64,000 bases of DNA from Stegostoma tigrinum (lineage: Eukaryota), in NCBI RefSeq assembly GCF_030684315.1, contig NC_081360.1, forward strand, positions 8,846,599 through 8,910,598, read 5' to 3'. The notes under the pieces were generated by a model that worked only from the letters and a program-made list of their open reading frames with translations, did no database searches and had not been told where the DNA came from. A program made the translations under genes and the position numbers. Below are positions 5,601 to 54,880 of this stretch, in pieces; positions within the stretch are counted from its first letter, which is position 1, and each line of letters opens with the position of its first letter.

Positions 5601-5903
5601 ATTGGGTAGAGAAACAGAGGAATCTTGGGGTAATTATTCACAGATCCCTGAAGTCAGCAGAGCACGTGAATAGGATAGTTAAGAAAGCATATGTGACACT
5701 TGCTTTCATCAGTCGTGACAAATGTAAAAAAGCAAGGAGGTAGTATTGGAATTTTACAAAGGCACAACTGGAATACTGTGTGAAGCTCTGGTTGCTTCAT
5801 TACAGTAAGGATATGATAGCACTAGAGGGGGTACAGAGGATGTTCTCCAGGATATTGCCTGGATTAGAGAAATTGAGCTATAAAGGGGAGATTAGATAGG
5901 ATT
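2640..5903 (+). mobile_element. Decayed near-full-length CR1 LINE (ORF1 esterase + ORF2 APE/RT)
   Basis: ORF fragments VHVGTNDMGK (SGNH), GVYCRSP..FNFPNINW (APE), VPEDWRLANAVPVFKKG, YMDFSKAFDKV and PQGSVLGP (RT), with many stops and frameshifts. Confidence 0.92.
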
Positions 5904-6046
5904 CAGTTCTAAGGAAGGGTCACTGGACCCGAAATGTTAGCTTTGTTTTTTCCTTCAAAGATGCTGCCAGACCTGCTGATCTTTTCCAGCAACTTTGTTT
6001 TTGTTCCTGCTTTACAACATCCACACTTCTTTCAGCTCTTATTGTG
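5904..6046 (+). mobile_element. Solo Penelope terminal-repeat element (family B) with degenerate hammerhead motif
   Basis: agtt-CTAAGGA-a-gggtc-actg-gaccc-GAAA-tgtt at 5905-5938; 12-bp direct repeat ttagataggatt at 5892-5903 and 6047-6058. Confidence 0.75.
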
Positions 6047-6065
6047 TTAGATAGGATTGGATTGA

Positions 6066-7815
6066 AAGCTCCTCTTGGGAGCACATACCCTCCTGCAAAA
6101 ATTCCATCCCCTATTCCCAATTCCTTCGCTCCCAAGAGGAGGTCGAACAGTTCATCCACTTTACCTTGCACCCCAACCTCAAGTTCACCTGGACCATCTC
6201 CAACACATCCCTTAGCTTCCTGGACCTTTCTGTCTCCATTTCAGGTAACCACCTAGAAACCGACATCCATTTCAAGCCCACCGACTCCCACATCTACCTA
6301 GAATACACCTCCTCCCACCTACCCACCTGCAAAAATTCCATCCCCTATTCCCAATTCCTTCGTCTCCGCTGCATCTGATCCCAGGATGAGGCATTCCACT
6401 CCCGTACATCTCAGATGTCCTTGTTCTACAAGGACTGCAACTTCTCCCCTGCAGTGGTCGAGAATGCCCTCGACCATGTCTCCTTCATCACCTGCAACTC
6501 ATCCCTCACACCCTGTCCCCGCAATAACCACCAAAAAATTTCCCTAGTCCTCACATACCAACCCACCAACTTCCGGATACAAAACATCATTCCTCCGACA
6601 CTTCTGCCATCTACAATCCGACCCCACCACCAAAGACATTTTTCCATCCCCACCCTTGTCTGCTTTCCGGAGAGACCACTCTCTCTGGGATTCCCTTGTC
6701 CGCTCCACACTCCCTCCAGCCCCACCACACCTGGCACCTTCCCCTGCAATCGCAGGAAGTGCTACACTTGCCCCCACACCTCCTCCCTCACTCACACCCC
6801 AGGCCCCAAGAAGACTTTCCATGTCAAGCAGACGTTCACCTGCACATCTGCCAATGTGGTATACTCTGCTGTACCCGTTGTGGCTTCCTCTACATCGGGG
6901 AAACCAAGCGGAGGCTTGGGGACCGCTTTGCAGAATATCTATGCTCGGTTCGCAATAAACTACTGCACCTCCCATTCGCGAGCCATTTCAACATTCCCTC
7001 GAATTCCTTAGGCGACATGTCCATCCTGGGCCTCCTGCAGTGCCACAATGATGCCACCCAAAGATTGCAGGAACAGCAACTCATATTCCGCCTGGGAACC
7101 CTGCAGCCCAATGGTATCCATGTGGATTTCACAGGCTACAAAATCTCCCCTCCTCTCCCCTCCTGCGTGCCAAAACCAGACCAGCTCATCCCCACCTCCC
7201 TAGCCTGTTCTTCCTCTCACCTATCCCCTCATCCCACCTCAAGCCGCACCTCCATTTCCTACCTACTAACCTCATCTTGCCCCCTTGACCTGTCCATCCT
7301 CCGCGGACTGACCTAACCTATCTCAGAAGGCAGTGGAGGCCAACTCTCTGGATACCTTCAAGAAAGAGATGCATAGAGCTCTTAAAGATACTGGAATCAA
7401 GGGTTATGCAGATAAGGCAGGAACAGGATACTGATTGTGAATGATCAGCCATGATCATAATGAATGGTGGTGCTGGCTTGAAGGGCCGAATGGCCTACTC
7501 CAGCACCTATTGTCTATTGTCTATTGTCCCCTCGTTACCTTCCCACCTATACTCACTTCTACAGGCTCCATCCCTGCCCCCTTAACTTGTCTGTCTCTCT
7601 CCACCTATCTTCTCCTCTATCCATCTTCGATCCACCTCCCCTCTCTCCCGATTTATTTCAGAACCCTCTCCCCATCCCCCTTTTCTGATGAAGGCTCTAG
7701 TCCAAAACGTCAGCTTTTGTGCTCCTAAAATGCTGCTTGGCCTGCTGTGTTCATCCAGCTCCACACTTTGTTATCTCAGATTTTCCAGCATCCGCTGTTC
7801 CCATTACCCCTGATA
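6066..7815 (+). mobile_element. 5'-truncated Penelope-like retroelement (RT C-terminus + GIY-YIG endonuclease + 3' pLTR)
   Basis: HPNLKFTWTIS..LSFLDLSV..FKPTDSHIYL..IPYSQFLRLRCI; CNRRKCYTC; CTRCGFLYIGETKRRLGDRFAE..GTLQPNGI; frameshifted; degenerate hammerhead at 7685-7711. Confidence 0.92.
7320..7528 (+). mobile_element. CR1-type LINE 3' tail nested in the Penelope 3' region
   Basis: gggccgaatggcctactcc followed by a (ctattgt)3 tail; Penelope sequence resumes afterwards. Confidence 0.75.
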
Positions 7816-8189
7816 CAACCGGCCCTCTGACCCTCCTGTTTATATCTGTCAGCCAGGGGTTCCTTATTGGACCAGATTAAGAGCCCCAATCAGGGAACTC
7901 ATATTCCGTGAGGTCCACCTGTCTGACCTCATTACAATCTCTCCTTCTGAGCCCGAGACCATAACCTGGTTCCTTGTTTTGTCGTTTCTCCTTGGGTGTT
8001 TCAGCACCGGGTCAGATTCCTCCAACTCTGCCTCTGGTACGGTTGGTGTGTAATGCGTAGTAGCTCTCAGTAGTATTAACTCTCTTCTTCATGTGGCAAA
8101 GGCATCAAGGCAATGACATCCACCGTGACCATCTCAGATTCTGAAATATCCTCAGTGTTTGAGGGAGAGGAACACCCGTTGGTTCCAGA

Positions 8190-8745
8190 ACAGTAGAACA
8201 TCGAACAGTACAGCACAGTACAGGCCCTTCCAGTTCATGATGTTGTGTCGACCTGTTATCCAGATCAAACTACCCTGCATACCTTATATTATACTATCAG
8301 CCATGTGCTTATCGAAGAGTCACTTAAATGCCTCTAATGTATCTGACTCCACTACTAGTTCCGGCAGCGCATTCCACACGCCCACCACTCTCTGTGTAAC
8401 GAACCTACCTCTGACATCTCCCCTACACGTTCCTCCAATCAACTTAAAATTATGCCCCCTTGTAATTGTAATTTCCGCCCTGAGAAGAAGTCTCTGGCTA
8501 CCCATTCTATCTATGCCCCTCATCATCTTGTACGCCTCTATCAAAGTCACCTCTCATCCGTCTTTGCTCTAATGAAAAAAGACCCTAGCTCCCTCAACCT
8601 TTCCTCATAAGACCTGCCTTCCAGTTCAGGCAGCACCCTGATAAATCTCCTCTGCACCCTCTCTAAAGCTTCCACATCCTTCCTATAATGAGGTGACCAG
8701 AACTGAACACAATATTTCAAGTGTGGTCTGAGTAGGAAAGGCATT
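8190..8745 (-). mobile_element. CR1 LINE 3' fragment nested in the Gypsy element
   Basis: RPHLKYCVQFWSPHYRKDVEALERVQRR, TRGHNFKL, TQRVVGVWNALP. Confidence 0.9.
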
Positions 8746-11700
8746 TGAGGAACCGAACACATTTTTGTCCTGCACTGTTTGCTAGCTTGCGGCCTTCATG
8801 TGATCCACATGCTTGTTCAGGATTATCACACACACCCAAACTTTACACGTTACTGGAGCTGCCGTCACATCAATCATGCCTCTTATCCGTGCAGGGCCAT
8901 TCCCATGATTCCTACACCAAACTTCACCACCTGAAGTAAACTCTTTCTCTCATTTAGTTGTGTCTTGCATTAGCATTCTAGGAAGATCAGATTTAACCTG
9001 GTGCAGCTTCCCATTAGCAACTCTGCTGGAGCTAACCACGTAGCTGCATGAGACATGGTCCTATAATCAAACAGAAACCAGGACGGTTTGTTATCTAGTG
9101 AAGATATAGACTATTCCTTTAAGTCTGTCTTCAAAGTTTGGTGACTCTTTCTGCCAGACCTTTGGATGATAGATAATATGGAGCTGTCCTTACAAGTCAA
9201 ATACCATTCGATTTTCGGAAATACTCAAAACCCCTGCTGGTAAACGATGGCCTGCGACCAACACTTCTGTGAGTTCAGATATTGCTAAAGGTGCATATAG
9301 TTTTTCTATCCTCTTCTCCATGTTGACTAAGAACATTGACCTCATCAAAGGACCTACATAGTCAATATGTAACCAAGTCCACGAATGTGAGGGAGCTGCC
9401 GGTGTTAATTTTTCTCCTTGTTGCACGACCAACACAGCTATGTCTTCATCCAATCCTAGCCGCCAGTTATAAACCCTCACCAAAATCTTCATTTTGTAAA
9501 CCCCTGGATGACCCTAGTAGAGTTTAGCCAGTATTTTGCAGAGATCTTTGCTCGGGACAATCACTGTTGCTCCCTAGAACAATATGCCATCGTCTGCTGT
9601 GATTGTAGTACCGTGATTTCCTCCAGATGCAAAAAAGTTTCTATTGTGGTTGCGACGGCCTTTTGGAATCCCCCATCCTCGCCAGCTGTTTCAGTTTTGC
9701 CAGCATTGGATCTTTCTGCATCCAAAATCTGATATTGTCAGCTGTGGCTGGAAGCATGTCCAATAAGTTTAAAACCACTATGGACTCTTCCAGTGGCAGT
9801 ACCATTGGTGGTGTATCTGACAGCAGGAGGCAACTCAATTCTTCGGCATTTGCTTCTTGGCCTCTCAGATCGTGTTCCAACTTGTAATTATATACACCTA
9901 GTACTAGAGCCCGCCATTGAATTTGGCCTGAAGCTATGGATGGCAATGTCTTTTCCTCTTTAAGTAGACCTAGCAGAGGTTTGTAATCTGTAGTTATTAC
10001 AAATTTACATACGTAAAGGTATTGGTGGGACTTCCTTACTCCAAAAGTGACCGCCAAACCTTCCTTCTCTATTTGCATATTTACACCCTGCATTAGTCAA
10101 AGTCCTGGATGCATATGCTATTGGGTGTTCCTCTCCATTGGGCTACCTTTGATCTAATACTACCCCAGTGCCATAAGGGGAGGCATCGTATGTCAATACC
10201 AGATCTCACTTGGGATCATAGTGTGCCAACACCTTAGAGGATGATTTCTTCACTCCCCAGAAAGCTATGGCTTGGCTATGTGACCATTTCCAAGGCTGAC
10301 CCTTATTTAAGAGTTGATGCAAAGTTGCCAGGATGGAGGCCAGATTATGTACAAACTTTCTGTAACATTTCATCAGTCCAAGGAAAGACCTAATCTCTGG
10401 CACTGATGTGGGAGCCAGGACACATATGATTGCTATCGTTTTATCTTCCAACAGATGAAATGTGGTCTTGTCAATGCTGTAGGTCACTTGGGGTGCCAGG
10501 AACACACACATTTTCCCCTTCTAAGGCTTACACCTGCCTGGGAGAAACATGTAAGGACTATGTCAAAGTTCTCTAAATGCTCCACATTGGTGTTCCCTGT
10601 GATTAACACATCATCTAGATAAATGGCAACCTGGGATTGACCTTGCAAAATGTCCTCCATCATCTGTTTTAAAATTGCACAGGCTGACAATACGCCAAAT
10701 GACAGCCTTGTATATTGGTATAAACCCGTATGCGTATTAACTGTAGCATCCATCAAAAATCCTACAAAGGTAAACCAACACATTAGACTTCACAACTGGT
10801 ACAACCAGTGCTGCCCATTCCACAAACTGGACTGGTTTGATGATTTCTTTGCTTTCCAGCCTCCTGATTTAAACCTTCACTTATGCCCATAAGGAAAATG
10901 GCACTGGGCAGGCCTTTTGGAATCATTGAATTGCTCTCTGGTCAAAATGCAAGGTGGTATTTTCTCCTTTGATAGCCCTTAGCCCTTCCTGAACATCCTC
11001 CAGGTACTTACTTAGGACTTCACTCAGGCAGCCATTTTCTCTTGAAAAGTTGACCCTACCAAGGTGAATCTTTCTCAATCAGTTTCACCCCATCAAACTT
11101 GGGCCCGAGCTTTTTATTACAATCGCTGGTAAGTGAGCCAACTGCTTCATATAAGAGACTGGAACCAAAGTTGTGCCCTTAATCTGTAAAGATTCCCCAG
11201 TATAGGTTTGCAGTCCAGCTGAGATCTTGCCCAAGCCCAAGGATTGGAGTCCAGAATGAATTTTGTTACCATTCAACCAGGCATTTATTTTGATTGGTTT
11301 TGATTTGGATGATGCTGGCAATTTAACTGTTCCAAATTAGATGTATGTGGGCTTTCAGGGCATGGACACCAGCCTATGAGTTCTGTTACTCAATTTAGTG
11401 GGACCATTGCTGTCTCAAGTCTGCATACCAGGAGCAACTACAATTGCTTGCTGGCTCAGATCCTGAAGAAAATTTTAATAATTTGTCCAGTTCTTGGCTT
11501 TATTTTGCTGTGGGCTGGCCGCGAGTCCCTCTGTTCAAGATATGCCCTGAGTGAGGCTATGCAATTGCCTTCACTCAAATGGTGCTGCCCAAGCTCAGGC
11601 GGCCTGGTGAGGGTGTCCACTACCATCAGAAGACGCTGTAACTCATGCTCCAATTGCTGTTTTTTCCAATGATTAAGCCAATCATCGTGCCTATTTGAAG

Positions 11701-12039
11701 TTCAGTTGGACTTTAGCTAGTAGGCACTTTTGCATGGTTCCATCATTAATCCTACATACCAAAAGTCTCTCAGCATCTCATTAAAGACTAAACCAAGGCC
11801 ACATGCCTCTGGCAGTCAAATTAACTTAGTCAAAAAGTACAGTTTACCCCGGCTCTTACCGAGTAAAATTGCTGGTATCTCAGAATTAGTGGAAGCTTAG
11901 TATTGTATTATTCCTTAACTAAATCCATCAGCTTTTGAAAGTTTTTAGTATCTTGTGCCTAAGGGGAAAGTTAGGCTCCTAATAACCGAAAAAGGTGCAG
12001 GTCCACAAACTGGCTGGAGAATTGCTCATCACTTTACAT

Positions 12040-12252
12040 CTAATGAGCTGCCAGAGGAAGTGGAGAAAGCTAGTACAATTACAACATTTAACAGGCATCT
12101 GGATGGATGAATGAATGGGAAGGGTTTAGAGGAATATGGGCTAATTGCTGGCAAATGAGCCTGGACTTATTTAGGATATCTAGTTGGCATGGGCAAGAGT
12201 AACCTAAGGATCTGATTCCGTGCTGTACATCTCTATCACTCTATAACTCTGT
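12040..12252 (+). mobile_element. CR1 LINE 3' tail nested in Gypsy gag
   Basis: aatgagctgccagaggaagtgg... ending in a ctctatcactctataactct tail. Confidence 0.75.
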
Positions 12253-13525: not shown

Positions 13526-13559
13526 GGCATGGTTTAGGTTTGCTGGAATGGTACCCACC

Positions 13560-18429: not shown

Positions 18430-18952
18430 AATTGGGGGAAGGGGAGATTTTGAAGCTGGTGAAATCTCCCCTTCCCCCACCGCATCCCAAAACCAGCCCA
18501 GTTCGTCCCCTCCCCCCACTGTACCACACAACCAGCCCAGCTCTTCCCCTCCACCCACTGCATCCCAAAACCAGTCCAACCTGTCTCTGCCTCCCTAACC
18601 TCTTCTTCCTCTCACCCATCCCTTCCTCCCACCCCAAGCCGCACCTCCATCTCCTACCTACTAACCTCATCCCACCTCCTTGACCTGTCCGTCTTCCCTG
18701 GACTGACCTATCCCCTCCCTACCTTCACACCTATACTCTCCTCTCCATCTATCTTCTTTTCTCTCCATCTTCTGTCTGCCTCCCCCTCTCTCCCTATTTA
18801 TTCCAGAACCCTCACCCCATCCCCCTCTCTGATGAAGGGTCTAGGCCCGAAACGTCAGCTTTTGTGCTCGTGAGAGGCTGCTGGGCCTGCTGTGTTCATC
18901 CAGCCTCACATTTTATTATCTTGGATTCTCCAGCATCTGCAGTTCCCATTAT
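18430..18952 (+). mobile_element. Penelope 3' fragment with pLTR and short 5' fold-back
   Basis: Matches 7140-7810; 5' junction ggggaaggggagattt / aaatctccccttcccc is an inverted repeat. Confidence 0.85.
18827..18858 (+). ncRNA. Minimal type I hammerhead ribozyme motif (family A), core intact
   Basis: CTGATGA (18829-35), a, stem II gggtc-ta-ggccc, GAAA, cg, TC; palindromic ACGT at stem III; stem I only about 2 bp. Confidence 0.65.
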
Positions 18953-19632
18953 TACATCCCCAATCTGTCCAGTCTCTCTTCATAACAGAATCTCTCCAGC
19001 CCAGGCAGCACCCTGGTAAATCTCTTCTGCTACCTCTCTCCAGTGCTATCAAATTCCTTCTATAACGCGGCTTCCAGAGCTGTAGTAATTGTCATACACT
19101 GACCTTTATTATGAGCTGTATCTACTCCAACATGATACAGAGACCAGCACCACAAACCCTGGGTGAAGCCTTTAAGTTTTGTGGCTCATCATGCAATGTA
19201 GCTCCTGCATAAAAAATTAACATATTCACAATTGCCTAAAAGAAAAAAAAAATTCTTTGCAAACCAGAAACTTGTGGAATGTTTTTGAATGTGATCCAGT
19301 CACAACTAGACAATGATATTGTACAGACTAATCCACCATTGCTAGCAACAAGATGAACATAACTGCAAACTAATTGATGTTACTGCAAGTCGAGAGATAA
19401 AGGGTAATGATGCTACTTAGCTGGTGCTTTGCAATTAAAATTCCTTTGTACCAGCACAATATCATCCTTATTACAGTCATTTAATCTTTAATGAAGTGTT
19501 GTTACTGATAAGAAATGCTGATTTGTGAGCCCACACACTTTATGTTTAGAGGTGGCCGAAAGAAAATCTGGAATGGATACAAATCAAATCTGCTATTGCT
19601 TGGACGGAGTTTAAAGCAACAGTACAACGTGT

Positions 19633-19872
19633 GATAATTACGTGTAGAGCTGGATGAGCCCAGCAGGCCAAGCAGCATCAGAGGAGCAGGAAAGCTGATG
19701 TTTCGGGCCTAGGCCCTTCTTCAGAAATGATTTCTGAGATTTCTTTAGAGATTTCTGAAGAAGGGTCCAGGCCTGAAACATCCTGCTCTATGATGCTGCT
19801 GGGCCTGCTGTGTTCATCCAGCTCTACACCTTATTATCTCAGATTCTCCTGCATCTGCAGTTCCTACTACCC
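19633..19872. mobile_element. Fold-back Penelope pLTR element with hammerhead motifs on both strands
   Basis: Left arm is the reverse complement of the right arm; CTGAAGA..GAAAcatc on each strand; TSD cagtacaac(g/a)tgt at 19620-19632 and 19873-19885. Confidence 0.85.
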
Positions 19873-23744: not shown

Positions 23745-24885
23745 CAGAGATAGAGAAGGTGATTGAGAAATTTCCACCATTTCCCCCAGATCCAACATGA
23801 TGCCACCACCAAACATGTCTTTGAGCATTCCAAAAATACCATTCCCTCCATGACTCCCCAGTCCAGTCATTATGAACCCCAACACTTCCTCCCTTTCCCA
23901 CATCTTCATTCCATTCAAGCACAGGAGTTGCAACTCCTGCCTTTTAGTGTCGCCCATTCAAATCGATGAATGCCCCAAACACTCTTTACAAGTGCAACTA
24001 TAAATGAGTTACTGATACTTCTTCCAATTTAGCGCACTGTATTCATTGTTCATAATTCATTCTCCCCTCCACACAGAAGACTAAAAACAGAATGGGAGGC
24101 CACTTTGTGATACATCTACATTCAGTTTGTAAACATAGTCCCAACATTTTTGACATTTGTAATTTGACTTCTCTGCCTTGCCCTCACCCACACCTCACTG
24201 TCCTCGGCTTGCTGTAAGTCTTACAGTGAAGCTCAGTGCAACCTTGAGGTATAGCCCTCCCTAATCTTCTCAGCTCTCTGCAGCTATCCAGGCTCAATAT
24301 TGAGTTCAACTGCTTGAGATCATAAGCTCTGCATCCAATTTGCTGTCATTCTTTATTGTTTTATTTCTCACCCTGATTCTTTTTCTATCCCTTACATTCA
24401 GGCAGCTGTTATGTAGCCATACGCACCCCAACTTGAATTTGGTTTACTTAACCCCTTACCACTCTCTTTTTGTTTTGCACCATGGCATCTTATGTTAGTT
24501 AAACTCTCCCGCCAACCACCGTCTCACAGAGCCAGCCTTTCATTCTTCCTGTTTCCTCCCTCACTTCCTCTACTTGCTTAAAAAAAACACTTACGTTTCA
24601 TTCTTGACAACAAAATGTGAGGCTGGATGAGCACAGCAGGCCAAGCAGCATCTCAGGAGCACAAAAGCTGACGTTTTGGGCCTAGACCCTTCATCCAGCC
24701 TCACATTTTGTTGTCTTGGATTCTCCAGCATCTGCAGTTCCCATTATCTCTGATACGTTTCATTCTTGCTCCTTTTCTGATGACGTTTAATGGCCCGAAA
24801 CTTCGTTTCTTACCACAACCACTGAGTATTTCCAGCATTTTGCTGTTTTTCTTTCAGATTTCCAGCCTCAGCAGTGTTTGCGCTT
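23745..24885 (+). mobile_element. Old, highly decayed Penelope-like element 3' part
   Basis: Colinear similarity to 6600-7130; degenerate CTGATGA..GAAA at 24777-24800. Confidence 0.65.
24607..24753. mobile_element. Young fold-back pLTR mini-element
   Basis: Perfect 15-bp TSD tacgtttcattcttg (24592-24606, 24754-24768); inverted arms gacaacaaaatgtgaggctggatga / tcatccagcctcacattttgttgtc. Confidence 0.9.
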
Positions 24886-27307: not shown

Positions 27308-27533
27308 GAAAAACCAAAAGAACTGCGGATGCTGTAAATCAGGAACAGAAACAGAAGCTGCTGGAAAAGCTCAGCAGGCCTGGTAGCATTTGTGAAAAAA
27401 AAAGTAGTTAATATTTTGGGTCCTGCGACCCTTCTTCAAAACTGAGCAAGTTCTGAGGAAGGGTCACCAGACCCGAAATGTTAGGTCTGATATTTTTCTT
27501 CACGGATGCTGCCAGACTTGCTGAGCTTTTCCA
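27308..27533. mobile_element. Fold-back pLTR element (family B) with hammerhead motif
   Basis: Inverted arms ctggaaaagctcagca / tgctgagcttttccag; agtt-CTGAGGA-a-gggtc-acca-gaccc-GAAA-tgtt at 27449-27482; TSD gaaaa(c/g)aagcaa at 27296-27307 and 27534-27545. Confidence 0.82.
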
Positions 27534-28024
27534 GAAAAGAAGCAATGATTGAGAGGAGCTAGTTAAGGAGGCGAGATCAGCTTCCCTCTTTCTGGTCTTG
27601 GTTGTTAACACCTTTCCCAAAGGGTGAGGCCCAGGATCATACACAATGCTTCAAGTAAAGCCTGACCAGGGATTTTGAAAGTTTTAGCATGATATCCTTG
27701 CTTTTATATTTATCTCTATTTACAAAGCCGTGAAGTCCATCTGTCTTCTTAACTGCCTCATCAACTTGCCGTGCTATCTCCAAGAGGAGGCAATGGCCTC
27801 GTGCTATTATTGCTGAACTGTTAATTCAGAGGCCCCTGGTAACACTCTGGGGACCAGGGATCAAATCGCACCACGGCAGATGGTGGAATTTGAATTCAAC
27901 AAAAAAAAGTCTACAGATGAACATGAATGCCCTTCAGGGAGGGAACCTGCTGTCCTTACCTGGTTTGGCCACCCATATGACTCCATACCTACAGCAATGT
28001 GGTTGATTCTTAACTGCCCTCTGG

Positions 28025-28655
28025 GTCCTGTCTTCCTGTATGGCTGTGAGATGTGGTCTGCCTACAGCAGACACCCCTGAAGCGATACCACCAACATTGC
28101 CTGCACAAGATTCTGCAAATCCACTGGGAAGAAAGACACACTGATACCAGGGTCCTTGACCAGGCCAACGTCCCCAACCATTCAGGCATGGATCACCTTT
28201 GACTAGCTGCAATGGGCTGTGCACATTGTCTACATAACTGACACGAAACTCCCCGAGCAGGTGCTCCAGTCCCAGCTCCGAAACAGCAGGCAAGCCCCAG
28301 GTGGACAGAGGAAGCGCTTCAGCCACACACTCAATGACTCACTGGCGTAGTGCGGCATTCCCACAGACCTCTGGGAATCACTGGCCCAAGAGCGTCCAAA
28401 GTGGAGGAGGAGCATCCGGGAAGGCGTTCGAGCACCTTGAGGCTTGCCATCAGGAAAAAACAGAAGTCAGGTGAAAATAGCTAAAGGAGTGCACTGCTGT
28501 GTCCACATCCCACCCACCCGTTCCCACGGCCACCTCCTGCCCCAAGTATAACAGAGCCTGCAGAAGCTGCATCGGCCTGTACAGGCACCTACCTCATCCT
28601 GAGAGGTGGAAGAGATCATCCTCGTCTGCAAGGGACTACCAATGAAGGAATGAAT
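28025..28655 (+). mobile_element. RTE-clade LINE 3' fragment
   Basis: VFLYGCEMW followed by sequence encoding YHQHCLHKILQIHWE and GGQRKRF motifs typical of RTE ORF C-termini. Confidence 0.75.
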
Positions 28656-29337
28656 ATCCTCTGGGCAATACGGGATGGGCAATAAATGCTGGCTGAGCCA
28701 CCTATGTCCACAATCCATGAATGAAAGAAAGAATTTATGACTGTGCACCCTAAGATATTCTGTGGTGGCTTCCTCCTTGAAATGGTGCCATTTAGATTAT
28801 GTTGCTTCGGCCATTATTGTTTTTTCTATCAGTTCACACTCATCCTTAAACTACAGCTGCCGTATTTCAGCCCATTTCATCAAGCTGCCTCTGTTCTCTT
28901 GAAACCTGTTACTATCTTGCTCTCTATTTATTACATTTTACAACTTTAAATCACCAGTAAGAACTAGGAATTGTACTCTCTAACCCTCAGTCCAAATCAT
29001 ATGTGTAGAACAAGAGAAGTGATGCTCCTAGTATTGATCCTGGAATACCACAGTACATCCTCCAGTCAGAAAAATCAACATCCACCACTATTCTCTGCTC
29101 CTTGTGCATTAACAAATTCCGCAATCAAGTTAGTACTATTCCTTTAATTCCATACATTTTGAATCCACCTGTTAAGTGGTACTTTATCAAATGCCTTTGG
29201 ATGTACAAGCTGTACTACATCACCTTCATCAAACTGCTTAACGTTTTATCAAATATCAGTCATTCAAGTACCTCACACGTTTTAAAAGAAAATTGATGCT
29301 GGCTCTGCCTTTTGAACCCATACCTCTCTGACTGAGA

Positions 29338-29833
29338 TAATAAAGTGTGAAGCTGGATGAACGCAGCAGGCCCAGCAGCATCTCAGGAGCACAAAAGCTG
29401 ACGTTTTGGGCCTAGACTCTTCATCAGAGAGGGGGATGCGGTGAGGGTTCTGGAATAAATAGGGAGAGAGGGGGAGGCGGACAGAAGATGGAGAGAAAAG
29501 AAGATAGGTGGAGAGGAGAGTATAGGTGGGGAGGTAGGGAGGGGATAGGTGAGTCCAGGGAAGACAGACAGGTCGAGGAGGTGGGATGAGGTTAGTAGGT
29601 AGGAGATGGAGGTGCGGCTTGGGGTGGGAGGAAGGGATGGGTGAGAGGAAGAACAGGTTAGGGAGGCAGAGACAGGCTGGACTGGTTTTGGGATGCAGTG
29701 GGGGGAGGGGTTAGGGTTAGGGTTAGGGTTAGGGTTAGAGATGCTGCTTGGCCTGCTGTGTTCATCCAGCTTCACACTTTATTATCTTGGATTCTCCAGC
29801 ATCTGCAGTCCCATTATCACTGATACAATTTTA
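29338..29833. mobile_element. Fold-back Penelope 3'-end insertion containing telomeric repeats
   Basis: Antisense Penelope 3' end 29338-29710, then (TTAGGG)4TTAG, then a sense pLTR arm 29737-29833; TSD acctctctg(a/c)ctgaga at 29322-29337 and 29834-29849. Confidence 0.9.
29708..29738 (+). repeat. Interstitial telomeric repeat GGG(TTAGGG)4TTAG
   Basis: Read directly from the sequence. Confidence 0.97.
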
Positions 29834-30072: not shown

Positions 30073-30434
30073 TGCCATCAGGAAAAAACAGAAGTCAGGT
30101 GAAAATAGCTAAAGGAGTGCACTGCTGTGTCCACATCCCACCCACCCGTTCCCACGGCCACCTCCTGCCCCAAGTATAACAGAGCCTGCAGAAGCTGCAT
30201 CGGCCTGTACAGGCACCTACCTCATCCTGAGAGGTGGAAGAGATCATCCTCGTCTGCAAGGGACTACCAATGAAGGAATGAATTGCTTTGGAGGGAGATG
30301 ACCACAGAGGACACTTGCACTGCCTTCCTGCTTTTTTTCTCCCTTTTGGTCACCAATTCCCTTTCTCCCTCAGCAATCCTAATCTGCGGTGTGTCCAATT
30401 TGCTAAACGTGCTATCCACGACTTCCTCAGCATT
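30073..30434 (+). repeat. Composite local duplication (211 bp copy of 28445-28655 + 152 bp copy of 32449-32600)
   Basis: Both segments appear identical to their sources on visual comparison. Confidence 0.92.
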
Positions 30435-32905
30435 CCTCAGATGCCTTCCTTAGGCCAACTTGACCTAGATTAATCAAACATCTATCCCTAACCTCAACAT
30501 CCTTCATGTCCCTCTCCTAGGTAAATACCAACGCAAAGTACTCATTAAGAATGTCACTCATTTTCTCTGACTCCTCGCATGCCCACTTTTGTTCTTGAGT
30601 GGGCCAACCCTTTCTCTAGTTACCCTCTTGCTCCTTATGCGTGAATAAAAGACTTTGGGATTTTCCTTAACCCTGTTTGCTAAAGATATTTCATGACCTC
30701 TTTTAGCCCTCTTAATTCCTCGTTTCAGTTTGGCCCTACTTTCCCGATATTCTTCCAAAGCTTCGTCTGTTTTCAGTCACCTCGGCCTTATGTATGTTTC
30801 CTTTTTCTTCTTTGCTAGTCTCACAATTTCATCTGTCATCCATGGTTCCCTAATCTTGCCCTTTCCTTCCCTCATTTTCACAGAAACATGTCTGGCCTGC
30901 ACTCTAATCAACATCTCTTTAAAAACCTCCCACATATCAAATGTGGATTTACCCTCAAACTGCTGCTCCCAACCCACATTCCCTAGCTCCTGCCGAATTT
31001 TGCTATAGTTGGCCTTCCCCCAATTTAGCACTCTTCCTTTAGGACCACACTTGTCTTTGTCCATCAGTATTCTAAAATTTACAGCACTGTAATCACTACT
31101 CCCAAAATAATCCCTAACAGAAACTTCAACCACCTGGCCGGGCTCATTTCCAACACCAGGTCCAGTATGGCCCCTTCCCAAGTTGGACTATTTACATACT
31201 GCTCTATAAAACCCTCCTGGATGCTTCTTACAAATTCTGCTCCATCTAAACCCCTAACACTAAGTGAATCCCAGTTGGGAAAATTAAAATCTCCCATCAC
31301 CACCACCCTGTTGCTCCTACATCTTTCTGTAATCTGTCTACATATTTGTACCTCTAGGTCACGCTCGCTTTTGGGAGGCCTGTAGTACAGCCCCAACATT
31401 GCTACTGCACCCCTTCTATTTCTGAGCTCTGCCCATATTGTTTCACTGCTCAAGTATTCCATAGTGCCCTCCTTCAGCACAGCTGTGATATCCTCTTTGA
31501 CTAGTAATGCAACTCCTCCAGCCCTTTTACCTCCCTCTCTATCCCACCTGATACATCTATATCCAGGGATATTTCATTGCCAATCTTGCCCTTCCCTCAA
31601 CCAAGTCTCAGTAATAGCAAGAACATCATACTCCCAGGTATTAATCAAAGCCCTAAGTTCATCTGCCTTACCTATACACTTCTCACATTAAAACAAATGC
31701 ACCTCAGACCACCTGTCCCTTTGTGTTCATCATCTGCTCTCTGCCTACTCTTCTCCTTAGTCACACTGACTTCATTATCTAGTTCCTTACCGGCTTTAGT
31801 TACTACCTCCTCACTGTTCACTGACCTCCTCATTTGGTTCCCATCCCCCGCCACATTAGTTCAAACCCTCCCCAACAGCGTTAACAAAAGCACCCCCTAG
31901 GACATCGGTTCCAGTCCTGCCCAGGTGTAGACAGTCTGATTTGTTATTATCCCACCTCCCCCCAAACCGATCCCAATGCCCAGAAGTCTGAACACCTCCT
32001 TCCTGCACCATCTCTCAAGACACTCATTTATCCTGCCTATTCTTTCATTTCTATTTGGACTAGCACGTGGCACTAATAGCAATCCTGAGATTACTACCTC
32101 TGGGGTCCTATTTTTTAACTTGGCTCCTAACTCCCTAAATTCTGCTTGTAGGACCTCATCCCATTTATTACCTATATCATTGGTGCCCATATGCACCACG
32201 ACAGCTGGCTGTTCACCCTCCCCCTTCAGAATGTCCTGCAGTTGGTCCGAGACATCCCTGACCTGTGCACCTGGGAGGCAACATACCATTCGGGAGTCTT
32301 GTTTGTGACCACAGAACCACCTATCTCTTCCCCTAACAACTGAACCTCCTATGACTATAGCCCTTCCACTCTTTTTCCCACCCCTCTTTACAGCAGAGCC
32401 AACCACGGTGCCATGAACCTGACTATTGTTGCCTTTCCCTCAGTATACTTGCTTTGGAGGGAGATGACCACAGAGGACACTTGCACTGCCTTCCTGCTTT
32501 TTTTCTCCCTTTTGGTCACCAATTCCCTTTCTCCCTCAGCAATCCTAATCTGCGGTGTGTCCAATTTGCTAAACGTGCTATCCACGACTTCCTCAGCATT
32601 GCGGAAGCTTCGAAGTGAGTCCATCCACAGATCCAGAGCCGTCATACAGTCTAACAATGGCTGCAGCTGGACATACTTCCTACACATGTACAAGTCAGGA
32701 ACATCAGCCCCATCCCTGAGTTCCAACATTGAGCAAGAGGAGCATAACACAGTTCTGGGATCTTGTGCCATTTTTACTCTAAAGCTTAGCTTAGCCCTAC
32801 TATCATATCAAATACTGGATAAATGAAATGAAAGAATTTTTACCAATCACTCTACTTACCAGCACACGATTAAACAAAGCCTTATCTTATCAACACACCA
32901 CAGAG

Positions 32906-33036
32906 ATAATGGGAACTGCAGATGCTGGAGAATCCTAGATAGCAAAGTGTGGGGCTGGATGAACACAGCAGGCCAAGCAGCATCTTAGGAGCACAAAAGC
33001 TGACGTTTCGGGCCTAGACCCTTCATCAGAAAAAAG
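32906..33036 (-). mobile_element. Solo pLTR mini-element (family A) with intact hammerhead core
   Basis: Minus strand CTGATGAAGGGTCTAGGCCCGAAACGTCAG at 33029-33000; perfect 12-bp TSD cacaccacagag at 32894-32905 and 33037-33048. Confidence 0.9.
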
Positions 33037-37566: not shown

Positions 37567-38109
37567 AATCCTATTTTCTCTAGTCTTCCATCTATCACAG
37601 AACTTCCTTTTGTCCCTGTCACACTCAATCCTCACTTAAAACCTATTCCATCTCTAACATTTCTCAATCTTAATGAAAGGTCACCCTGAAACATTGAGCT
37701 GAATGTTCTCATGTCTTGGCAAAATGCCATTTTTGGGGAAATGCACCAAAGCACACAGCTCCTGTTGACCTTCCTCATGTGACCGTCCACTCTTCAACTG
37801 ATCAATTTCGCAACTGGGCCCTCCAATGTCCAGCTCATGGAATCATGGAGCAGCAGAGGTGGATCTGCTTGCTGCTGACATGACTCTTGTTGTTCACACC
37901 TGACACCATATTTAAATAATCTGGGTGAAATGAAATGCCCTGTGGAGCAGGAAGAAGGTGAGTGACACTCTGCCCTTTGCATGTGTAAATTCTACTACCT
38001 TCTCTCTACCACCGCACATTCTCAGGGCCACCAATCACTCCAACTCTGCCATTGCTCATTAAGGCTCATGGACTCGAACTCTCACTATTGAGTCCAACCT
38101 TTCCAGGAT

Positions 38110-40474: not shown

Positions 40475-40491
40475 GTAAGTTAAATTTGTAA

Positions 40492-40620
40492 AGATAGCAA
40501 GAACTGCAGATGCTGGAGCCAGAGATAACACAGTGTGGAGCTGGAGGAATACAGCAGGCCAGAAAGCATCAGAGGAACAGGAAAGTTGACATTTCGAAAC
40601 AGGACCTTCTTCAGAAAAAG
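40492..40620 (-). mobile_element. Solo pLTR mini-element with degenerate hammerhead
   Basis: gaactgcagatgctggag..cagcaggcc..; minus strand CTGAAGAaggtcctgtttcGAAAtgtc. Confidence 0.75.
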
Positions 40621-44702: not shown

Positions 44703-45234
44703 AATTCAAACGATTGACAGTTTGGTCCCATTCTTGAAAGGAAAAGTCTGAAGTGTCACCTATTAGTAGTTTTTAAAACTCTGAAATGATTCAACAGCGT
44801 GGATGCCTCTCATGGGGGATGCTCAGCACTAAAAGCCATGTATATAACTTAGTCACTAAGAACCCAAAGTGCTATACATAAGAAACAAATTTACCTCAGC
44901 TTCTCTGGCAACTTTGTTTTTGTTCCTGATTTACAGCATCTGGAGTGCTTTCAGCTTATAACTCTATCTCAGTGAGTGGTTGAAGCCAACGTTTTTGATG
45001 CATTGAAGAGGAAGCTAGTTGTGCAGTGGGAAGTCAAAATGGAGAGTTACAGCTATGTGTTCAAATGAGGAAAAGCACGGGAAGTGACTTCTGTGAAGCA
45101 CAAAAACTGACTTAGACTAATAGAGTGAAATTGTTTGTTCCCCTGTGTTGCAACTGATGTAATCTTAGGTGAGAATGTTGTGTGATATTTCACCAGATTT
45201 CTTTTTTCAGATTTCTTCACCCAGTCGCCAGTCT

Positions 45235-48559: not shown

Positions 48560-49592
48560 GACTCATAGAGTTATACAGCACGGAAACAGAATCTTCAGTC
48601 CAACTAGTCCATGCTGACCATAGTCTCAAACTAAACTAGTCCCGTTTGCCTGCAGTTGACCCATTTCCCACCAAACATTTTTTATTCACGAACTTATCCA
48701 AATGTCTTTTAAATGTTGTAACTGTACCCACATCCATCATTTCCTCTGGAAGTTCATTCCACACTTGAACCACTCTCTGCGTAAGATAATTGCACCAAGG
48801 CCTTTGTAAAATCTTTCTCCTGTCACCTTAAAATATGCCCCAAGTCTTGAAATCCCTAACCCTAGGGAAAAGACACTTGCCGTTCACTGTATTTATGCCC
48901 CTCATGATTTTATAAACCTCATTAAGGTCACCTCTCAAGCTCTTACATTCCAGTAAAGAAAGTTCCAACCTATCGAACCTCTCCTTTTAACTCAAGCTCT
49001 CTATCCCCGGCAATACTCTGGTATATCTCTTCTAACCCTCTCAGTTATTAATATCCTTCCTAAAACAGGGCAACCATAACTGGACACAGAAGAGGCCTCA
49101 TCAATAATGCCTTGTACAACTTCAACATAGTGTTCTCAACTCCAATTCTCAAAGCTCTGAGCAATGAAGGCAAGTGTGCTAAACGCTTTCTTAACTCTAT
49201 ATCTGATGCAAGCTTCAAAGAATCATGGATCTGAATCCCTAGTTGTCTACAACACTACCTAAGACCCTACTTTTCATTGTATAAGCCTTGCCTTTGTTTG
49301 TTTTACAAAATGCAGCATCTCACATTTATCCAAATTAAACTCCATCTGCCACTCTTCAGCCGGCTGACCCAATTGATCAAAATTTTTTGATATCTTAGAT
49401 AACCTTCTTCACTGTACACTACACCACCAACTCTGGTGTAATCCGCAAGCATACTAGCCCCGCTTTCTGCATTACCATCTAAGTCACTTTTACAAATGAC
49501 CAACAAAACAGGACCCAGCACCAATCCCTGTGGAATACTGCTGGTCACAGGCCTCCGGTCTGAAAAACAGCAGCCCACCATCACCCTCTGTC
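48560..49592 (-). mobile_element. CR1 LINE 3' part
   Basis: PVTSSIPQGLVLGP, MLADYT; tail catagagttatacagcacggaaacag. Confidence 0.9.
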
Positions 49593-50379
49593 TGTGTTGT
49601 CCAGGAAATTAATGCTTTCCTCGTGTGATATGACTTTAAATTAAAGGTCTGTTAAGTGATGACGTTGATGAATTCTTCTAATTGTACTTGCATGAATCTA
49701 AATACTCCATGTGTCAAACACAAAATGTCATTACTGCATGCCTGAATCGCTGAATCTATGAATTTAAGAGAATAACAAAAGGAATCCCTGAACCACAAAT
49801 AAAAGGCTCTGAAAATCAAAAAATTGGCCCTCAAGAAAATCTCAAAAAGAGCACTGGGCAGATAAATTGAATCTTGCTATGGGACACAGGCAAAAATATT
49901 AAAATTAAGATTGTGATATAGATCAGGTCAAGTGGTAAAACAGGCTCATTGGGCTGAAAGGCTGTTTCTCAGCCAGTTACACACAATCTTATGAATTTAA
50001 CAAAGTTTTCGACAAGATTTGACATGAAAGACATGTTGGAAAAGAAAAAGCTATGAGAAAATGGCAAGTTGAATGCAGCCTCTGCTCAGTGGCAGGAAGC
50101 AAACGGGACCTGATGACTTTCTGACTGGAAGGGCAGACTACCTGGTTTTTGCTGTTTGTGGTATGCATTGATGATTTAGACTTAAATGTAGGGCTCATGG
50201 TTGTAAAGTTCACAAATGATTAAAAGAATTGATTTGCAATTGAGAATGAGAAAAGAAGCTAGAGACTGGAGAAAGTTATCAATGGACTGAGAGTCAGGGA
50301 TTCGTTTGTGAGGGTGGTAGATAAGGATTTCTGCGTTCATTAATGTGATACCAGGAAGGCATGTGTTAGGAGTTTGGAA

Positions 50380-51880
50380 CAGCTGCAGAGCATTCTTAAG
50401 GAGCAAGTTGAACAGCTAGAAGTCATGGCCCATGTTGGGCCACTGTAATAGGAAGAAAGGGAATTGAGGTCCTGTAAGCAGACTTTAGTGAGTTAGGTAG
50501 AAAGTTGAAAACTGGGCTTCAAAAGGTAGTAACCTCTAGATTACTCCCAATGCTGCACAGCCATGAAAGTAAAACTAGAAGGATAGAGCAGATGGGTTCA
50601 TGGCTAGAGAGATGGCAGACGAGGAGGGCTTTAGATTCCTGAGGGATGTGGACCATTTCTAGGGGAGGTGGCACTTGTACAAGTTAGATAGGTTACATCT
50701 GAACAGGAATAGGACCAACATCCTCATGGGGAGGTTTACTAATATTGTTGGGAGGATTTAAATGAGATTGGCATGGTTTTGGAACCCTGACACATAGTTC
50801 AAAGGGGAGAGAAAATGAGATGGGGTCAGAAGTTAAATCATGAGTAAGTGGAGACAGAGGAAAGCCAGACTAGATAAGAGGGAGGCGAATTCCACAAATC
50901 GAAATGCAATAAATTTTCATGCAAAGACCTTGCGGAATTAGGCAGACAAGCCAAGGGATATATGAGAATATGACAACACAGCTATTTCTGAAAAATGGGC
51001 AGGATTGACAGTTCAACATTTTCCTGCTTATAGGGTATTCAGACAAGTTAGGGAGATTGACAGAAGAGAGGGGTTGTTGCCGTAGTAATAAAAGAATCAA
51101 TTATATCAGTGAGGGGGATGACATCTTGGAAGGATGATCAAATATGGGTTGATGTAAAAACACAAAAGGGGAAAATATTCTCTTGGGAGGCATACTCTTT
51201 GCCGTTAACAGTTAAGGAAAGATGGGGGATCAAATACATTATCAAATATCAGAGAAGAGTAACAATAATGAGGCAAAAATAAGATGGGATTTTAACAACG
51301 CAAATATTAACTTAGTTAGTTTTAATGTGTAAAGTAGGGAAGAAACAAAATTCTTGCACTGCATCCAGAAAAGCCTTTTCTTGACAGTCAGTAGGCAGCC
51401 CAGCAAGGAATGAGCAGTTCTGGACCTAATATACTGAAATTACTTTGGGTAAGTGGAAAGAATATCAACAGGGAGAATTTTAGTGATAGTGATCATAACT
51501 GTTAGAATTGGGATAATTTTGGAAAGGGATAAGAGTACGCCAGTGAGAAAAATTAGGGAAAAACTAGTTTTTCTAAGATAAGATCCAATTTGACCAAGTG
51601 GACTGGAAGTAGCTACTTGCTGATAAACTGTGACATAGCAGTGGAAGGTATATAAAGTAGAAATAGCAAGTATGTTCCCATTAAGCCAAAGAGAGGAGAC
51701 CAAGATCAGAGATCAATGGATGTCAAGGGCCATAAAGGGTAAGATTAAAAAATAAAGAGAAACTCATGACAGGTACTGAGGGGTCAACATGACAGATCCC
51801 CCAAAGCAGTATTAAAAGTACAAGGGGGAGGGGGCATCTTTAAAAATGACATTAGGAAATTTTATATATATTATTAGGAA
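50380..51880 (+). mobile_element. Old CR1 LINE ORF1/APE fragment
   Basis: Colinear with 2990-4500 and 55400-57060; no long ORFs remain. Confidence 0.7.
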
Positions 51881-52414
51881 TTAATTATATATCGAGAAAA
51901 GCAGTGGTCCTTGTTCCAACCTTGAGAAACACTCTTGTATACTATCCTCCAGTCCAGAAGACAACCACCACTCTCTGTCTCGTGTTACTCAGTTAGCAAT
52001 GTGTCCATGATGTCATTGTCAACTTCAACTTCACTGGTAAGTCTATTATGGTGGCACTATTTCAAAAACCCTTTGAAAATCCATATACACCTCACCTACT
52101 ACATTACTTGTATCAACCCGCTCTGTTACCTCATCAAAGAATTGAATTTACTCAAGTAAACACAATACATCTTTAACCAGTCTGTGCTGGTTTTCTTTAA
52201 TTAACTCACATTCATCCAAGTGGCCGTTAATTATGTACTGGATTACCGTTTTTAAAAGGTTTTCTATCACCAAAGTTAAATCACTAGTCTGTAGTTTGTT
52301 TGAATTATTCTTCCTCCTTTTCTTTTAGATTCTCCAGTTGTCTGGCGTCATTCATACATCCAAGGAGGATGATGGCAGTGGGTCGAGAGCAACACTGTGA
52401 GTCTGCAGTCAGCT

Positions 52415-52645
52415 CTTTGATCCTGTCCTCTTGTGACTGTCAGCGTGGAGTTTGCACATTCTCCCTATGTCTGCATGGGTTTCCTCCAGGTAATCTGGTT
52501 TCCTCCCACAGTCCAAAGATGCGCAGGTTAGGTAGCTTGGCCGTGATGAGTTGCCCATAAGGTCATTGGATGTGCAGACTAGGTGGATTAGCCATGGGGA
52601 ATGCAGGGTTACGGAGATGGGGTCAGGGGTGGGTCTGAGTGAGAT
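52415..52645 (+). mobile_element. HE1-like SINE (5'-truncated)
   Basis: ggtttcctcccacagtccaaagatgcgcagg core. Confidence 0.8.
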
Positions 52646-52989
52646 TTAATGCTGAGATTGACACATTTTTAATCAGTGAGGCAATCTACGGTTATGGGGA
52701 AAAGGCAGGAAAATGGAGTTGAAGATTATCAAAACAGCCAAGATCTGATTAAATGGTGTGAAAGACTGATGGACTGCAGTGCATCCAAGAGAGGGTGCTG
52801 CTGAGCAGCAACTGAGGAGGATTCTGGGAGGAGATTGCTCAGTTATCAATGGCTGCCCAGGAGGAAATAGAAGGGAGACAAGTTATAGTGGAGTGGCTGT
52901 TTTGAGAAGATTGCTTTAGGGATAAAGTGCCTTTGGAGGTTTAAGTGTGGGCTTTGGTGAGGGGGTGATCAGCAATGAGGTAAGGATAA

Positions 52990-54880
52990 GAAACAAAAAC
53001 AGAAATTGCTGGAAAAGTTCAGCAGGTTTCACAGCATTGATGGAGAGAAATCAGAGTTAACATTTCAGGTAGAGAGACCCTTCCTCAGAACTGATTGTAG
53101 CTAGGAAAATATGCAGAAGTTAGGGTGGGGGGAGAGAGTAGGGAGTAAACAATAAATGGGGTTAGAGCCCAAAGAGAGAGAAGAATAGTTGGGCAGACAA
53201 AGGAGTAGATAAAAATGTGGCTAGGAGGGTGATAAGCCATTAAAGGAGGCTGTTAGTAGTGAACAATAGGTTGTGTGTAATAGCAGAGTATGTGATACCA
53301 AGGCCTGATGTTTGGGGGTAGGAGTAAGGACATGGGAGAACTTGAGCCCTAAAGTTATCGAACATGATATTGAATCCAGAAAGCTGCAGGTCACCAGGTG
53401 CAAAATGCGGTGCTGTTCTTCCATCTTGCACTGAGTTTCGCTGGAATGCTGCAACAAGCCTGAGACAGAGATGTTGGTCAAGGAACAGGGTGTTAAAGTG
53501 GCAGGGCAATTGGAAACTCTGGGTGTTTTTTTGCGGACAGAACGTAGGTGCTCTGTGAAGCGGTCACCCAGTCTACAGTTCATTTCCCCAATGTAGAGGA
53601 GACCACATTGGGAGCAGTGAATGCAGTTGACTAGATTACATGACGTATTGGTAAAGTGCTGTTTCATCTAGAAGGTATGTTTGGGCCCTGGGATATTTAG
53701 GAGGGTAGAAATAAACTGAAAAGTATTACACCTTCTGTGGCTGCAGGGGAAGGTGCTATGAGGCTCTGTTGTGTGCTGCAAGTGAAGGACAAGTGGACCC
53801 AGTGGGAAATGTCCCTATGAAAGGCAGACAAAGGAGGGGAGGGACGGGGAATATGTTTCTGGTGGTAGCATCTCGCTGGAGGTAGTGGATCTAGCAGCTC
53901 ATCCTGTGGCTCTCGTGCTGGTGGGATGGCAGTTAAGGTCAAGGGGAACCCTATTGCTTTGGTGGGAGGGGAGAGAAGGGGTGAGAGCGGAAGTGTGGGA
54001 AATAGATCGGACCCAGCTGAAGGGCCTGTCAACAACGTTGCTGGGGAATCCTCAGTTGAGGAAGGAGGTGGACATTTTGGAGGCTCCCTTTTGAAGTTGG
54101 AATTATCAGAACAGATGTGATGAATATGGAGGAACTGGAAGATTGGAATAGAGTCTTTACAGGAAGCAGGCTGTAAGAATGTGTAGTTGAAGTGGGAGTC
54201 GGTTAGCTTATAGGGGAAATTGGTGGCCAGCCTATTCCCAGAAATGGAAAGAGAGATGTCATGAAAGGGAAGGGAGGAGACAAGGATGCACCAGATGAAA
54301 GTGAGACCAAAGTGGAAATTAGAAGAAAAATTGATAAACTTTTTAGATTCTGGGCGTGAGAGGGAAGCAGAACCGATGATCTCATCGATATATCGGAGAA
54401 ATTGTTGTGGGTGGGGGCTGGAATAGGAATGGAACAAGGAATGTTCTGTGTGCCCCACGAAGTGACAGGCATATCTGGGTACCCTGTAGGTACTCGTGGC
54501 CACCCCTCTGATCTGAAGAAAATGAAAGGAGTAGCAAGAGAATTTGTTCAGGGTGAGATCAAGCTCGGCCAAACGGAGGAAGCTGGTGGTGGATGCAGAC
54601 GGTTCAGGACGTTCCTGGAAGAAGAGGAGAGCCCTGAGACTATCCTAGTGGGGGCTAGACATGTAAATGAATTGCACGTCCATGGGAAAGAGGGCGTGGC
54701 TGGAGCCTGCAAACTGGAAATTGTGGAACTGGCATAAAGCATCAGAGAAATCGCGGATGTACATGGGCAAGGACTGGACTAGGGGGTAAAGACCGACTCA
54801 AGGTAGGAAGAGATGTGTTCTGTGGGGCAGGAGCAGACAGAAACAATGGACATGCCCGGGCAGTCCTGTTTGTGTATTGG
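52990..54880 (-). mobile_element. Decayed Penelope-like retroelement (RT + GIY-YIG + family B pLTR)
   Basis: FLQIRGVATST..PRYACHFVG, FLRYIDEI (RT); CSQCGLLYIGE..RLGDRFTEHLRSV (GIY-YIG). Confidence 0.92.
53050..53095 (-). ncRNA. Minimal type I hammerhead ribozyme motif (family B)
   Basis: atc-agtt CTGAGGA a gggt-ctctct-acct GAAA tg TT aact-ct-gat: stem I agtt/aact, stem II and core are all present. Confidence 0.7.

Follow-up and report, generated by a model that had tools for sequence, protein, structure and literature searches.

How minimal hammerhead ribozyme motifs come to be dispersed over a short piece of a shark genome, and why so many of the copies begin at nearly the same place, is the question raised by a stretch of 64,000 nucleotides (nt) from Stegostoma tigrinum (contig NC_081360.1, positions 8,846,599 to 8,910,598), hereafter called the window. 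The motifs are minimal type I hammerheads, which lack a true helix III and have a palindromic 4-mer instead, and they almost certainly sit in the terminal repeats of at least two families of Penelope-like elements (PLEs). Since both the motif and its host element were already known, the catch itself is ordinary; the addition made here is a 5' junction, shared among the copies, that lies just before the hammerhead core. Taken together, the locus is probably explained by decayed PLE-end hammerheads whose short copies (stubs) are likely run-off complementary DNAs (cDNAs), made from uncut RNA whose start may lie just before the hammerhead.

Hammerhead motifs and their Penelope-like carriers

The original prediction had placed hammerhead motifs at 13 sites, and the core CUGANGA - extra base - stem II - GAAA - NN - UH was present at all of them, although the core nucleotide C3, by whose position the copies are named below, proved to lie at 19724, 27439 and 40614 and not at 19723, 27440 and 40615. 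The minus-strand copy at 24690, described as truncated, does start at 24695 and has no C3-U4. Of the two sequence families already distinguished, A and B, the copy at 24777 belongs to neither and forms a third variant, C. A strict descriptor (perfect core letters, stem II of at least 3 bp) matched six window sites and none in each of 40 local dinucleotide shuffles, the same descriptor relaxed to one core mismatch matched eight sites against a mean of 1.7 in the shuffles, and a family-derived pattern matched four sites and none in 100 shuffles. Profiles built from the window copies revealed no additional core-bearing copy in the window at E<=1, with the exception of one weak hammerhead-like relic near 37670 (37652-37698, plus strand, E 0.19). 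The motifs resemble the minimal hammerheads of metazoan PLEs (Cervera and de la Pena 2014, PMC4209133) in the type I core without helix III, the extra base between A9 and G10.1, the G10.1-C11.1 pair and the palindromic 15.1-16.1 segment. An Rfam scan of the window returned no hammerhead family at E<=1; its seven matches at that threshold were all microRNA models, fell under the gathering score and lay on inverted pairs. This result, together with a covariation score not above that of shuffled alignments (see below), would suit the idea that the motifs are chance look-alikes inside repeats, for which there remains a negligible probability given the absence of strict sites from the shuffles, the agreement of the extra base before stem II, the G10.1-C11.1 pair and the palindrome with the published PLE motif, and the location in a PLE terminal repeat, also as published. 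An antisense hammerhead was rejected by inspection, as the reverse strand has no GAAA in place, and a pattern scan of viral contigs gave no matches.

The identity of the carriers was established by tblastn of shark proteins and of full-length proteins containing reverse transcriptase (RT) and GIY-YIG domains. Two remnants of PLE open reading frames (ORFs) each run into an untranslated region (UTR), a hammerhead and then about 95-140 nt of further sequence, which bears out the proposal that PLE terminal repeats carry the motifs:

6130..7154, plus strand: family A PLE ORF remnant, 5'-truncated and frameshifted, with the RT end, a CNRRKCYTC zinc linker and GIY-YIG (tblastn, E 4e-133)
7155..7815, plus strand: family A terminal repeat with 3' UTR, hammerhead 7685 (G12>A, stem II damaged) and long tail (alignment)
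53389..54889, minus strand: family B PLE ORF remnant, decayed, with RT including RYIDE, a degenerate zinc linker and GIY-YIG (tblastn)
52989..53388, minus strand: family B 3' UTR and tail with hammerhead 53088 between them, whose core letters are intact and whose stem I has 4 bp, with G10.1.U11.1 (alignment)

The 3' UTR of the family A repeat is interrupted by unrelated DNA at about 7319-7526. The family A frame at 6055-6375 matches 650 proteins, the top named ones being from whale shark (87%), zebra shark (81%) and bamboo shark (74%), and its longer relatives carry the Pfam domains RVT_1 and GIY-YIG; the window remnants align over the RT end, linker and endonuclease of such RVT_1 and GIY-YIG proteins. 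A direct Pfam scan of five window ORF pieces gave no match, and a 315-residue family B frame had no match among longer proteins at E<=0.001 (7,123 candidates). A predicted zebra-shark protein reads through the same UTR and hammerhead. The linker of the family A remnant has the form CX5CxxC (CNRRKCYTC), and that of family B has lost its last cysteine. A CX2-5CxxC linker between RT and endonuclease is a mark of Neptune elements, shared with Nematis (PMC8557442), and judged by sequence the window elements appear to carry a cysteine linker of the Neptune type.

A shared 5' boundary just before the core

Most copies outside the ORF remnants are insertions of 140-500 nt, and their 5' ends are not evenly spread. 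Among the 12 copies that reach C3, the match to the UTR ends within 3-8 nt of it in eight, and the UTR is kept in four; a target-site duplication fixes the start at 5 nt before C3 in copy 5909 and at 7 nt in copy 33029. If truncation were random and its mean run 50-300 nt, the binomial p of such clustering would be 6e-5 to 1e-10, a range to be read in the light of the 8-nt window having been picked after the data were seen. None of the 15 aligned copies and fragments (16 rows with the 24690 pair counted as two) starts at the cleavage site, which is spanned by every core-bearing copy, and it is highly probable that the copies were made from uncut RNA. The same junction recurs beyond the window. 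Six loose-end sites were listed for the contigs of run X1, and long unrelated flanks occurred only at 18828 and 18952, the flanks at the other four being 10-15 nt; the junction at 18828 is represented in at least 662 contigs of this run, with a consensus ending CCTTT, and the 3' junction at 18952 in at least 924, which is also the measured floor for the number of copies. Sixteen metagenome-contig loci of distant PLE-like families (L001-L016) were found by a window-derived pattern, and among the 13 distinct ones the UTR could be followed for at most 9 nt in eight and was kept in three, with two (L003, L005) unplaceable. L001-L016 have cores nearly identical to that of shark family A and share its inverted-pair layout, but their stem I is of 3 bp (GCU/AGC).

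The sequence upstream of this boundary has some features of a promoter, the TATA, initiator and TCT consensus sequences applied here being common knowledge. In family A, TATTTAT occurs at -34 from C3 in two of the three UTR-bearing copies, where it is the sole TATAWAW match (at most one mismatch) in 362 nt, the window rate being 0.0075 per nt, and a run resembling a pyrimidine initiator comes after it at -5/-4. In L001 and L015, TATAAA lies at -38 and an initiator-like CCATT at -7, 31 nt apart. The boundary sequence of family B is TCAGTT. PLE promoters have been located in the terminal repeat (PMC2377424; PMC3846280, with putative TATA and initiator), and in the Anolis template printed in PMC11167929 a TATA-like run can be counted by eye at -45 from C3, with an A resembling an initiator at -14.

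These signs suggest a sequence of events in which a TATA-like box about 30 nt upstream would set the RNA start 4-7 nt before C3. The Anolis PLE protein nicks both strands of AT-rich DNA, and reverse transcription of its RNA starts internally, at two sites downstream of the hammerhead, on an uncut template (PMC11167929). By the same route in the shark, priming in the 5' repeat copy would let RT run off the 5' end of the RNA after about 100-140 nt and leave a stub; priming from both nicks would give a head-to-head pair, and priming in the 3' repeat copy would give the longer insertions that keep UTR and ORF. Any activity of the hammerhead would be confined to RNA from the few elements that are intact, perhaps aided by the element protein or a second copy, and its cut would take off some 35 nt of leader; the dispersed copies themselves are most likely inert.

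Several observations weigh against placing an RNA start at the boundary. Contigs cannot show RNA starts; beside the 24 loose-end rows listed there are 1,260 further rows over all runs, and a smaller peak at the cleavage site may lie among them. Position 18828 is also where copy 18829 departs from a CTTTT subfamily, and the boundary of copy 24777, which has no reference UTR, is limited only by the neighbouring duplication. L006, L008 and L009 have different tails, so that their UTR may simply differ from the reference, and L008 and L009 may be one locus. Copy 7685 has GATTTAT in place of TATTTAT, no TATA match is found in the 302 nt of the single, old UTR-bearing copy of family B, and the initiator and TCT motifs, which are short, were noticed post hoc. 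Several boundaries contain 1-3 nt upstream of the proposed +1 base, so that the start is placed only to about 2-3 nt. The Penelope start of D. virilis lies 46 nt plus an intron upstream (PMC2377424), and a start at the hammerhead is therefore not universal. An RNA start as the cause of the shared boundary stands at about an even chance.

The boundary could also mark a pause or template switch of the RT after the hammerhead hairpin, or annealing of the cDNA end to a T-rich target, on a longer RNA. This is rather unlikely, but it draws on a predicted hairpin of -11.4 kcal/mol in family A (CUGAUG/CGUCAG), on boundaries that fall in pyrimidine runs in this family, on the microhomology within the core at which the arms of the 24690 and L011 pairs are joined, and on the filler between the arms at 19725-19754. 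A stall would, however, be expected 3' of an RNA structure rather than 3-8 nt beyond its 5' side, the stop in family B falls at CAGTT and not in a T run, and the TATA-like box about 30 nt upstream in two families is left unexplained. The fixed 5' and 3' ends in hundreds of contigs are also what would be expected if the stubs were non-autonomous elements of about 140 nt, resembling short interspersed elements and derived from master copies of their own with a fixed 5' end, and non-autonomous derivatives of PLE repeats have been published (10.64898/2026.07.22.740005). Such an origin is improbable, as copies that have the UTR and copies that lack it share sequence types (33029 and 18829 are 93% identical over 125 nt), the arms of the pairs end at two different tail sites, and the proposed TATA box lies outside the stub, which would leave the stub without one. 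Two further accounts of the boundary were rejected: a splice acceptor, since family A has no AG there, and a second cleavage at an upstream NUH, since by inspection 4-5 nt are unable to close stem I.

Returning to an RNA start at the hammerhead edge, a wider proposal can be put forward tentatively, at somewhat less than even probability: in several animal PLE families, transcription may start a few bases before the hammerhead, so that the ribozyme would be a decapping switch at the 5' end of the messenger RNA and not a cutter of long precursors, and the stubs and palindromes would be ‘strong-stop’ cDNAs. The function of PLE hammerheads is regarded as an open question (PMC8557442). If the shared junction is the transcription start, the cut would remove the cap and about 35 nt; this would account for the presence of the cleavage site in every inserted copy and for the frequency of short palindromic insertions. 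Were the wider proposal true, stub junctions would map PLE start sites from DNA alone; shark genomes supply very many copies for testing the start-site idea. No published link between PLE 5' junctions and a start site at the hammerhead edge was found in a literature search whose scope took in few subscription journals.

Ribozyme quality and abundance

All core letters are intact in 8 of the 13 copies, stem II is also kept in six of these eight, and the self-pairing A15.1-N-N-U16.1 segment in four of those six; among these four, only 53088 has a 4-bp stem I, and it has a G.U instead of G10.1-C11.1. No copy retains every published feature. The extra base after A9 is universal (13/13), positions 10.1-11.1 form G-C in 11 copies and G.U in two, and the self-pairing 15.1-16.1 4-mer (ACGU, AUGU or AUAU) is found in ten, being broken in 19724, 19755 and 24777. 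As had been proposed, stem I is no longer than 2 bp in every copy of family A and reaches 4 bp in family B (three of four copies). The published length of helix I is 4-5 bp, although a D. virilis variant likewise has 2 bp, and helix II measures 4-5 bp here compared with 7-8 bp in the Schistosoma families (PMC4209133).

The observation that stem II loops vary while pairing persists was upheld for six of the eight core-intact copies, but no compensatory change was seen within a family. Stem covariation, the lack of which the original prediction had named as a refuting outcome, did not exceed that of shuffles: across 24 sequences (12 from the window and 12 L loci), 82.5% of cells pair compared with 15-39% in slid controls, but the covariation score was reached by 59 of 500 shuffles. 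Changes on both sides of a stem occur only between families, from C-G to U-A at stem II pair 4 and stem I pair 2. In family A the predicted fold pairs CUGAUG with CGUCAG, and in predicted monomers and dimers alike the core is buried in this 6-bp helix; these modelled folds fit low ribozyme activity. In the minus-strand copy 19724, stem II and its loop form a perfect 12-nt palindrome (19705-19716; 19732-19743 region), and the nearly palindromic form that the other copies of family A have underlies the dimer fold predicted for 18829 and 33029.

Whether the dispersed copies could constitute a large set of working ribozymes, cutting host or element RNA as monomers or dimers, has to be judged against this record. 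The eight intact cores, the four copies that also have stem II and the palindrome, the great abundance of the family and the report that the Anolis motif cleaves in the presence of the element's protein (PMC11167929) speak for it. It is nevertheless very improbable: G12>A is found at a CG in three copies, as expected from neutral CpG decay, the predicted monomer and dimer folds bury the core, and no tandem hammerhead unit occurs in the window, none of its 16 tandem-repeat rows containing a hammerhead. Published minimal hammerheads were cleaved weakly as dimers and were inactive as monomers (PMC4209133), and eight of nine Xenopus dimer constructs were uncleaved (PMC4209133; 10.64898/2026.07.22.740005). 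For the dimer cleavage with a palindromic stem III that had been cited for PLE hammerheads, the window motifs offer a self-pairing 4-mer and no true helix III, and because the window copies are solitary or head-to-head no dimer can form in cis. A very large genomic ribozyme load had likewise been suggested. The family is indeed very abundant, but the motifs are mostly decayed, and with no feature-complete copy, no tandem unit and no covariation above shuffles an active load is unsupported.

As to abundance, contigs fitting a 601-bp family A stretch number 166,893 of 18,073,179 in run X1 and 3,556 of 801,373 in run X5, and this stretch also attracts contigs of two other organisms. X1 may derive from the same source as the window. 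If the density of 13 motifs in 64 kb held for all of its 2,610 million letters, there would be about 5 x 10^5, a figure that comes from one window and is not a measurement. Hammerhead counts of 4,000 in coelacanth and 9,000 in Xenopus have been published (PMC4209133), and a section heading of PMC7229834 gives up to 120,000 for axolotl. Fishes, coelacanth, frog and reptiles have been reported to carry minimal hammerheads in their PLE repeats, for the most part singly (PMC4209133); no shark is noted in the portions of that article's text and supplements examined, which exclude supplement file 1.

Insertion anatomy and relation to known systems

The solo and paired insertions from which the boundary was read are as follows, by alignment:

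5904..6046, plus strand: family B solo insertion starting CAGTT 5 nt before C3 (5909), with G5>A and long tail
5892-5903 and 6047-6058: 12-bp target-site duplication of this insertion
18467..18952, plus strand: family A insertion with 362 nt of 3' UTR, TATTTAT 34 nt before C3, and long tail
18829-18856: intact core of this insertion, with the predicted cut after 18856
about 18433-18457: short inverted arm beside this insertion
19629..19872: head-to-head family A pair (CTGAAGA variant), minus-strand C3 at 19724 with short end, plus-strand C3 at 19755 with long end
19620 and 19873: 9-bp duplication of this pair
24607..24753: inverted family A pair, of which the short minus arm is interrupted within the core (from 24695) and the long plus arm consists of tail only (from 24690)
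24592 and 24754: 15-bp duplication of this pair
24769..24885 (3' end approximate), plus strand: variant C, whose core at 24777 keeps all its letters but whose stem II and palindrome are broken, with a B-like tail
27323..27534: head-to-head family B pair, minus-strand C3 position 27439 (C3>U, G12>A; long), plus-strand C3 at 27453 (intact core; short)
27316 and 27535: possible 7-bp duplication of this pair, A-rich and weak
29331..29833: inverted family A pair, minus arm with 3' UTR, hammerhead 29427 (G12>A) and short end
about 29739-29828: plus arm of this pair, tail only, long end
29322 and 29834: 9-bp duplication of this pair
29708..29738, plus strand: five GGGTTA telomeric repeats at the joint of the inverted arms
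32906..33036, minus strand: family A solo insertion starting 7 nt before C3 (33029), with intact core and long end
32894 and 33037: 12-bp duplication of this insertion
40495..40620, minus strand: old family A solo insertion (CTGAAGA variant), C3 at 40614, stem II decayed; ends approximate and no duplication found
44896..44956, plus strand: family B tail fragment without hammerhead

Of the 13 zones examined, six have target-site duplications of 7-15 bp (12, 9, 15, 7, 9 and 12). In all four inverted pairs the outer end of one arm extends further than that of the other, with lengths from C3 of 118 and 96 nt in one pair and 117 and 82 nt in another and a like pattern at 24690 and 29427; this difference is the published one-sided PLE ‘tail’. 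PLE insertions have been described as inverted repeats with such a ‘tail’ (PMC8557442, Fig. 2 legend; PMC3846280), which has been tied to two internal RT start sites (PMC11167929). The head-to-head, unequal arms of the shark pairs resemble those insertions, whose tail is of 30-40 bp, with duplications of 7-15 bp here. In the available portions of the same two articles (PMC8557442; PMC3846280), the palindromes are attributed to self-priming on an antisense template, and the 5' junctions are not linked to the hammerhead edge or to a start site. Every one of the 12 copies with a C3 has a hairpin, (G/A)CTG-N8-CAG(C/A), at 44-67 nt beyond it (for example, 18889-18904), which is kept over families A, B and C while its 8-nt loop varies; that it is a binding or priming signal is a guess.

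One close likeness is to the Poseidon element PAc of Anolis (Frangieh et al. 2024, PMC11167929), in which the hammerhead is about 100-140 nt upstream of two 3' ends, the RNA template is uncut and the targets are AT-rich; PAc, however, belongs to the Poseidon clade and has its ORF start inside the hammerhead, whereas the window elements have the Neptune-type linker. The mostly solitary arrangement, with some opposite-strand pairs and several families per genome, is that of the minimal PLE hammerheads in PMC4209133. Type I hammerheads in repeats related to PLE ends are shared with the non-LTR (long terminal repeat) retrozymes (PMC7229834; 10.64898/2026.07.22.740005), of which PLE-derived forms have been reported in one chondrichthyan genome (10.64898/2026.07.22.740005), but retrozymes are tandem arrays yielding circular RNAs and the window copies are solitary or inverted.

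Some smaller observations concern the joints and neighbours of these insertions. The arms of the 24607..24753 pair are joined on a 6-nt microhomology, TTCATC (24690-24695). This sequence belongs to the tail loop and is at the same time the reverse complement of the core GATGAA; a core-masking pairing in RNA is possible. The GGGTTA repeats at 29708-29738, a single case, lie exactly at the joint and inside one duplication, and they are oriented as they would be had telomerase lengthened the first cDNA at its G-rich 3' end prior to the joining. PLEs without endonuclease have been reported to bear telomeric repeats where their 5' ends are truncated (PMC3846280), whereas here they occur in an interstitial, endonuclease-bearing family. 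Two PLE insertions of different families twice lie within about 10-25 nt of each other (5904-6070 and 24607-24885), and such close-set insertions may mean that earlier insertion sites were used again. An LTR retrotransposon (RT, RNase H) and long interspersed nuclear elements (AP endonuclease, esterase-like ORF1) have left remnants at 9641-10786 (minus strand), 31079-32436 (minus strand) and 55255-56118 (plus strand). Two pairs of identical (100%) direct repeats, 28445-28655 with 30073-30283 (211 nt) and 30283-30434 with 32449-32600 (152 nt), abut at 30283 and represent either a recent duplication or an assembly artefact.

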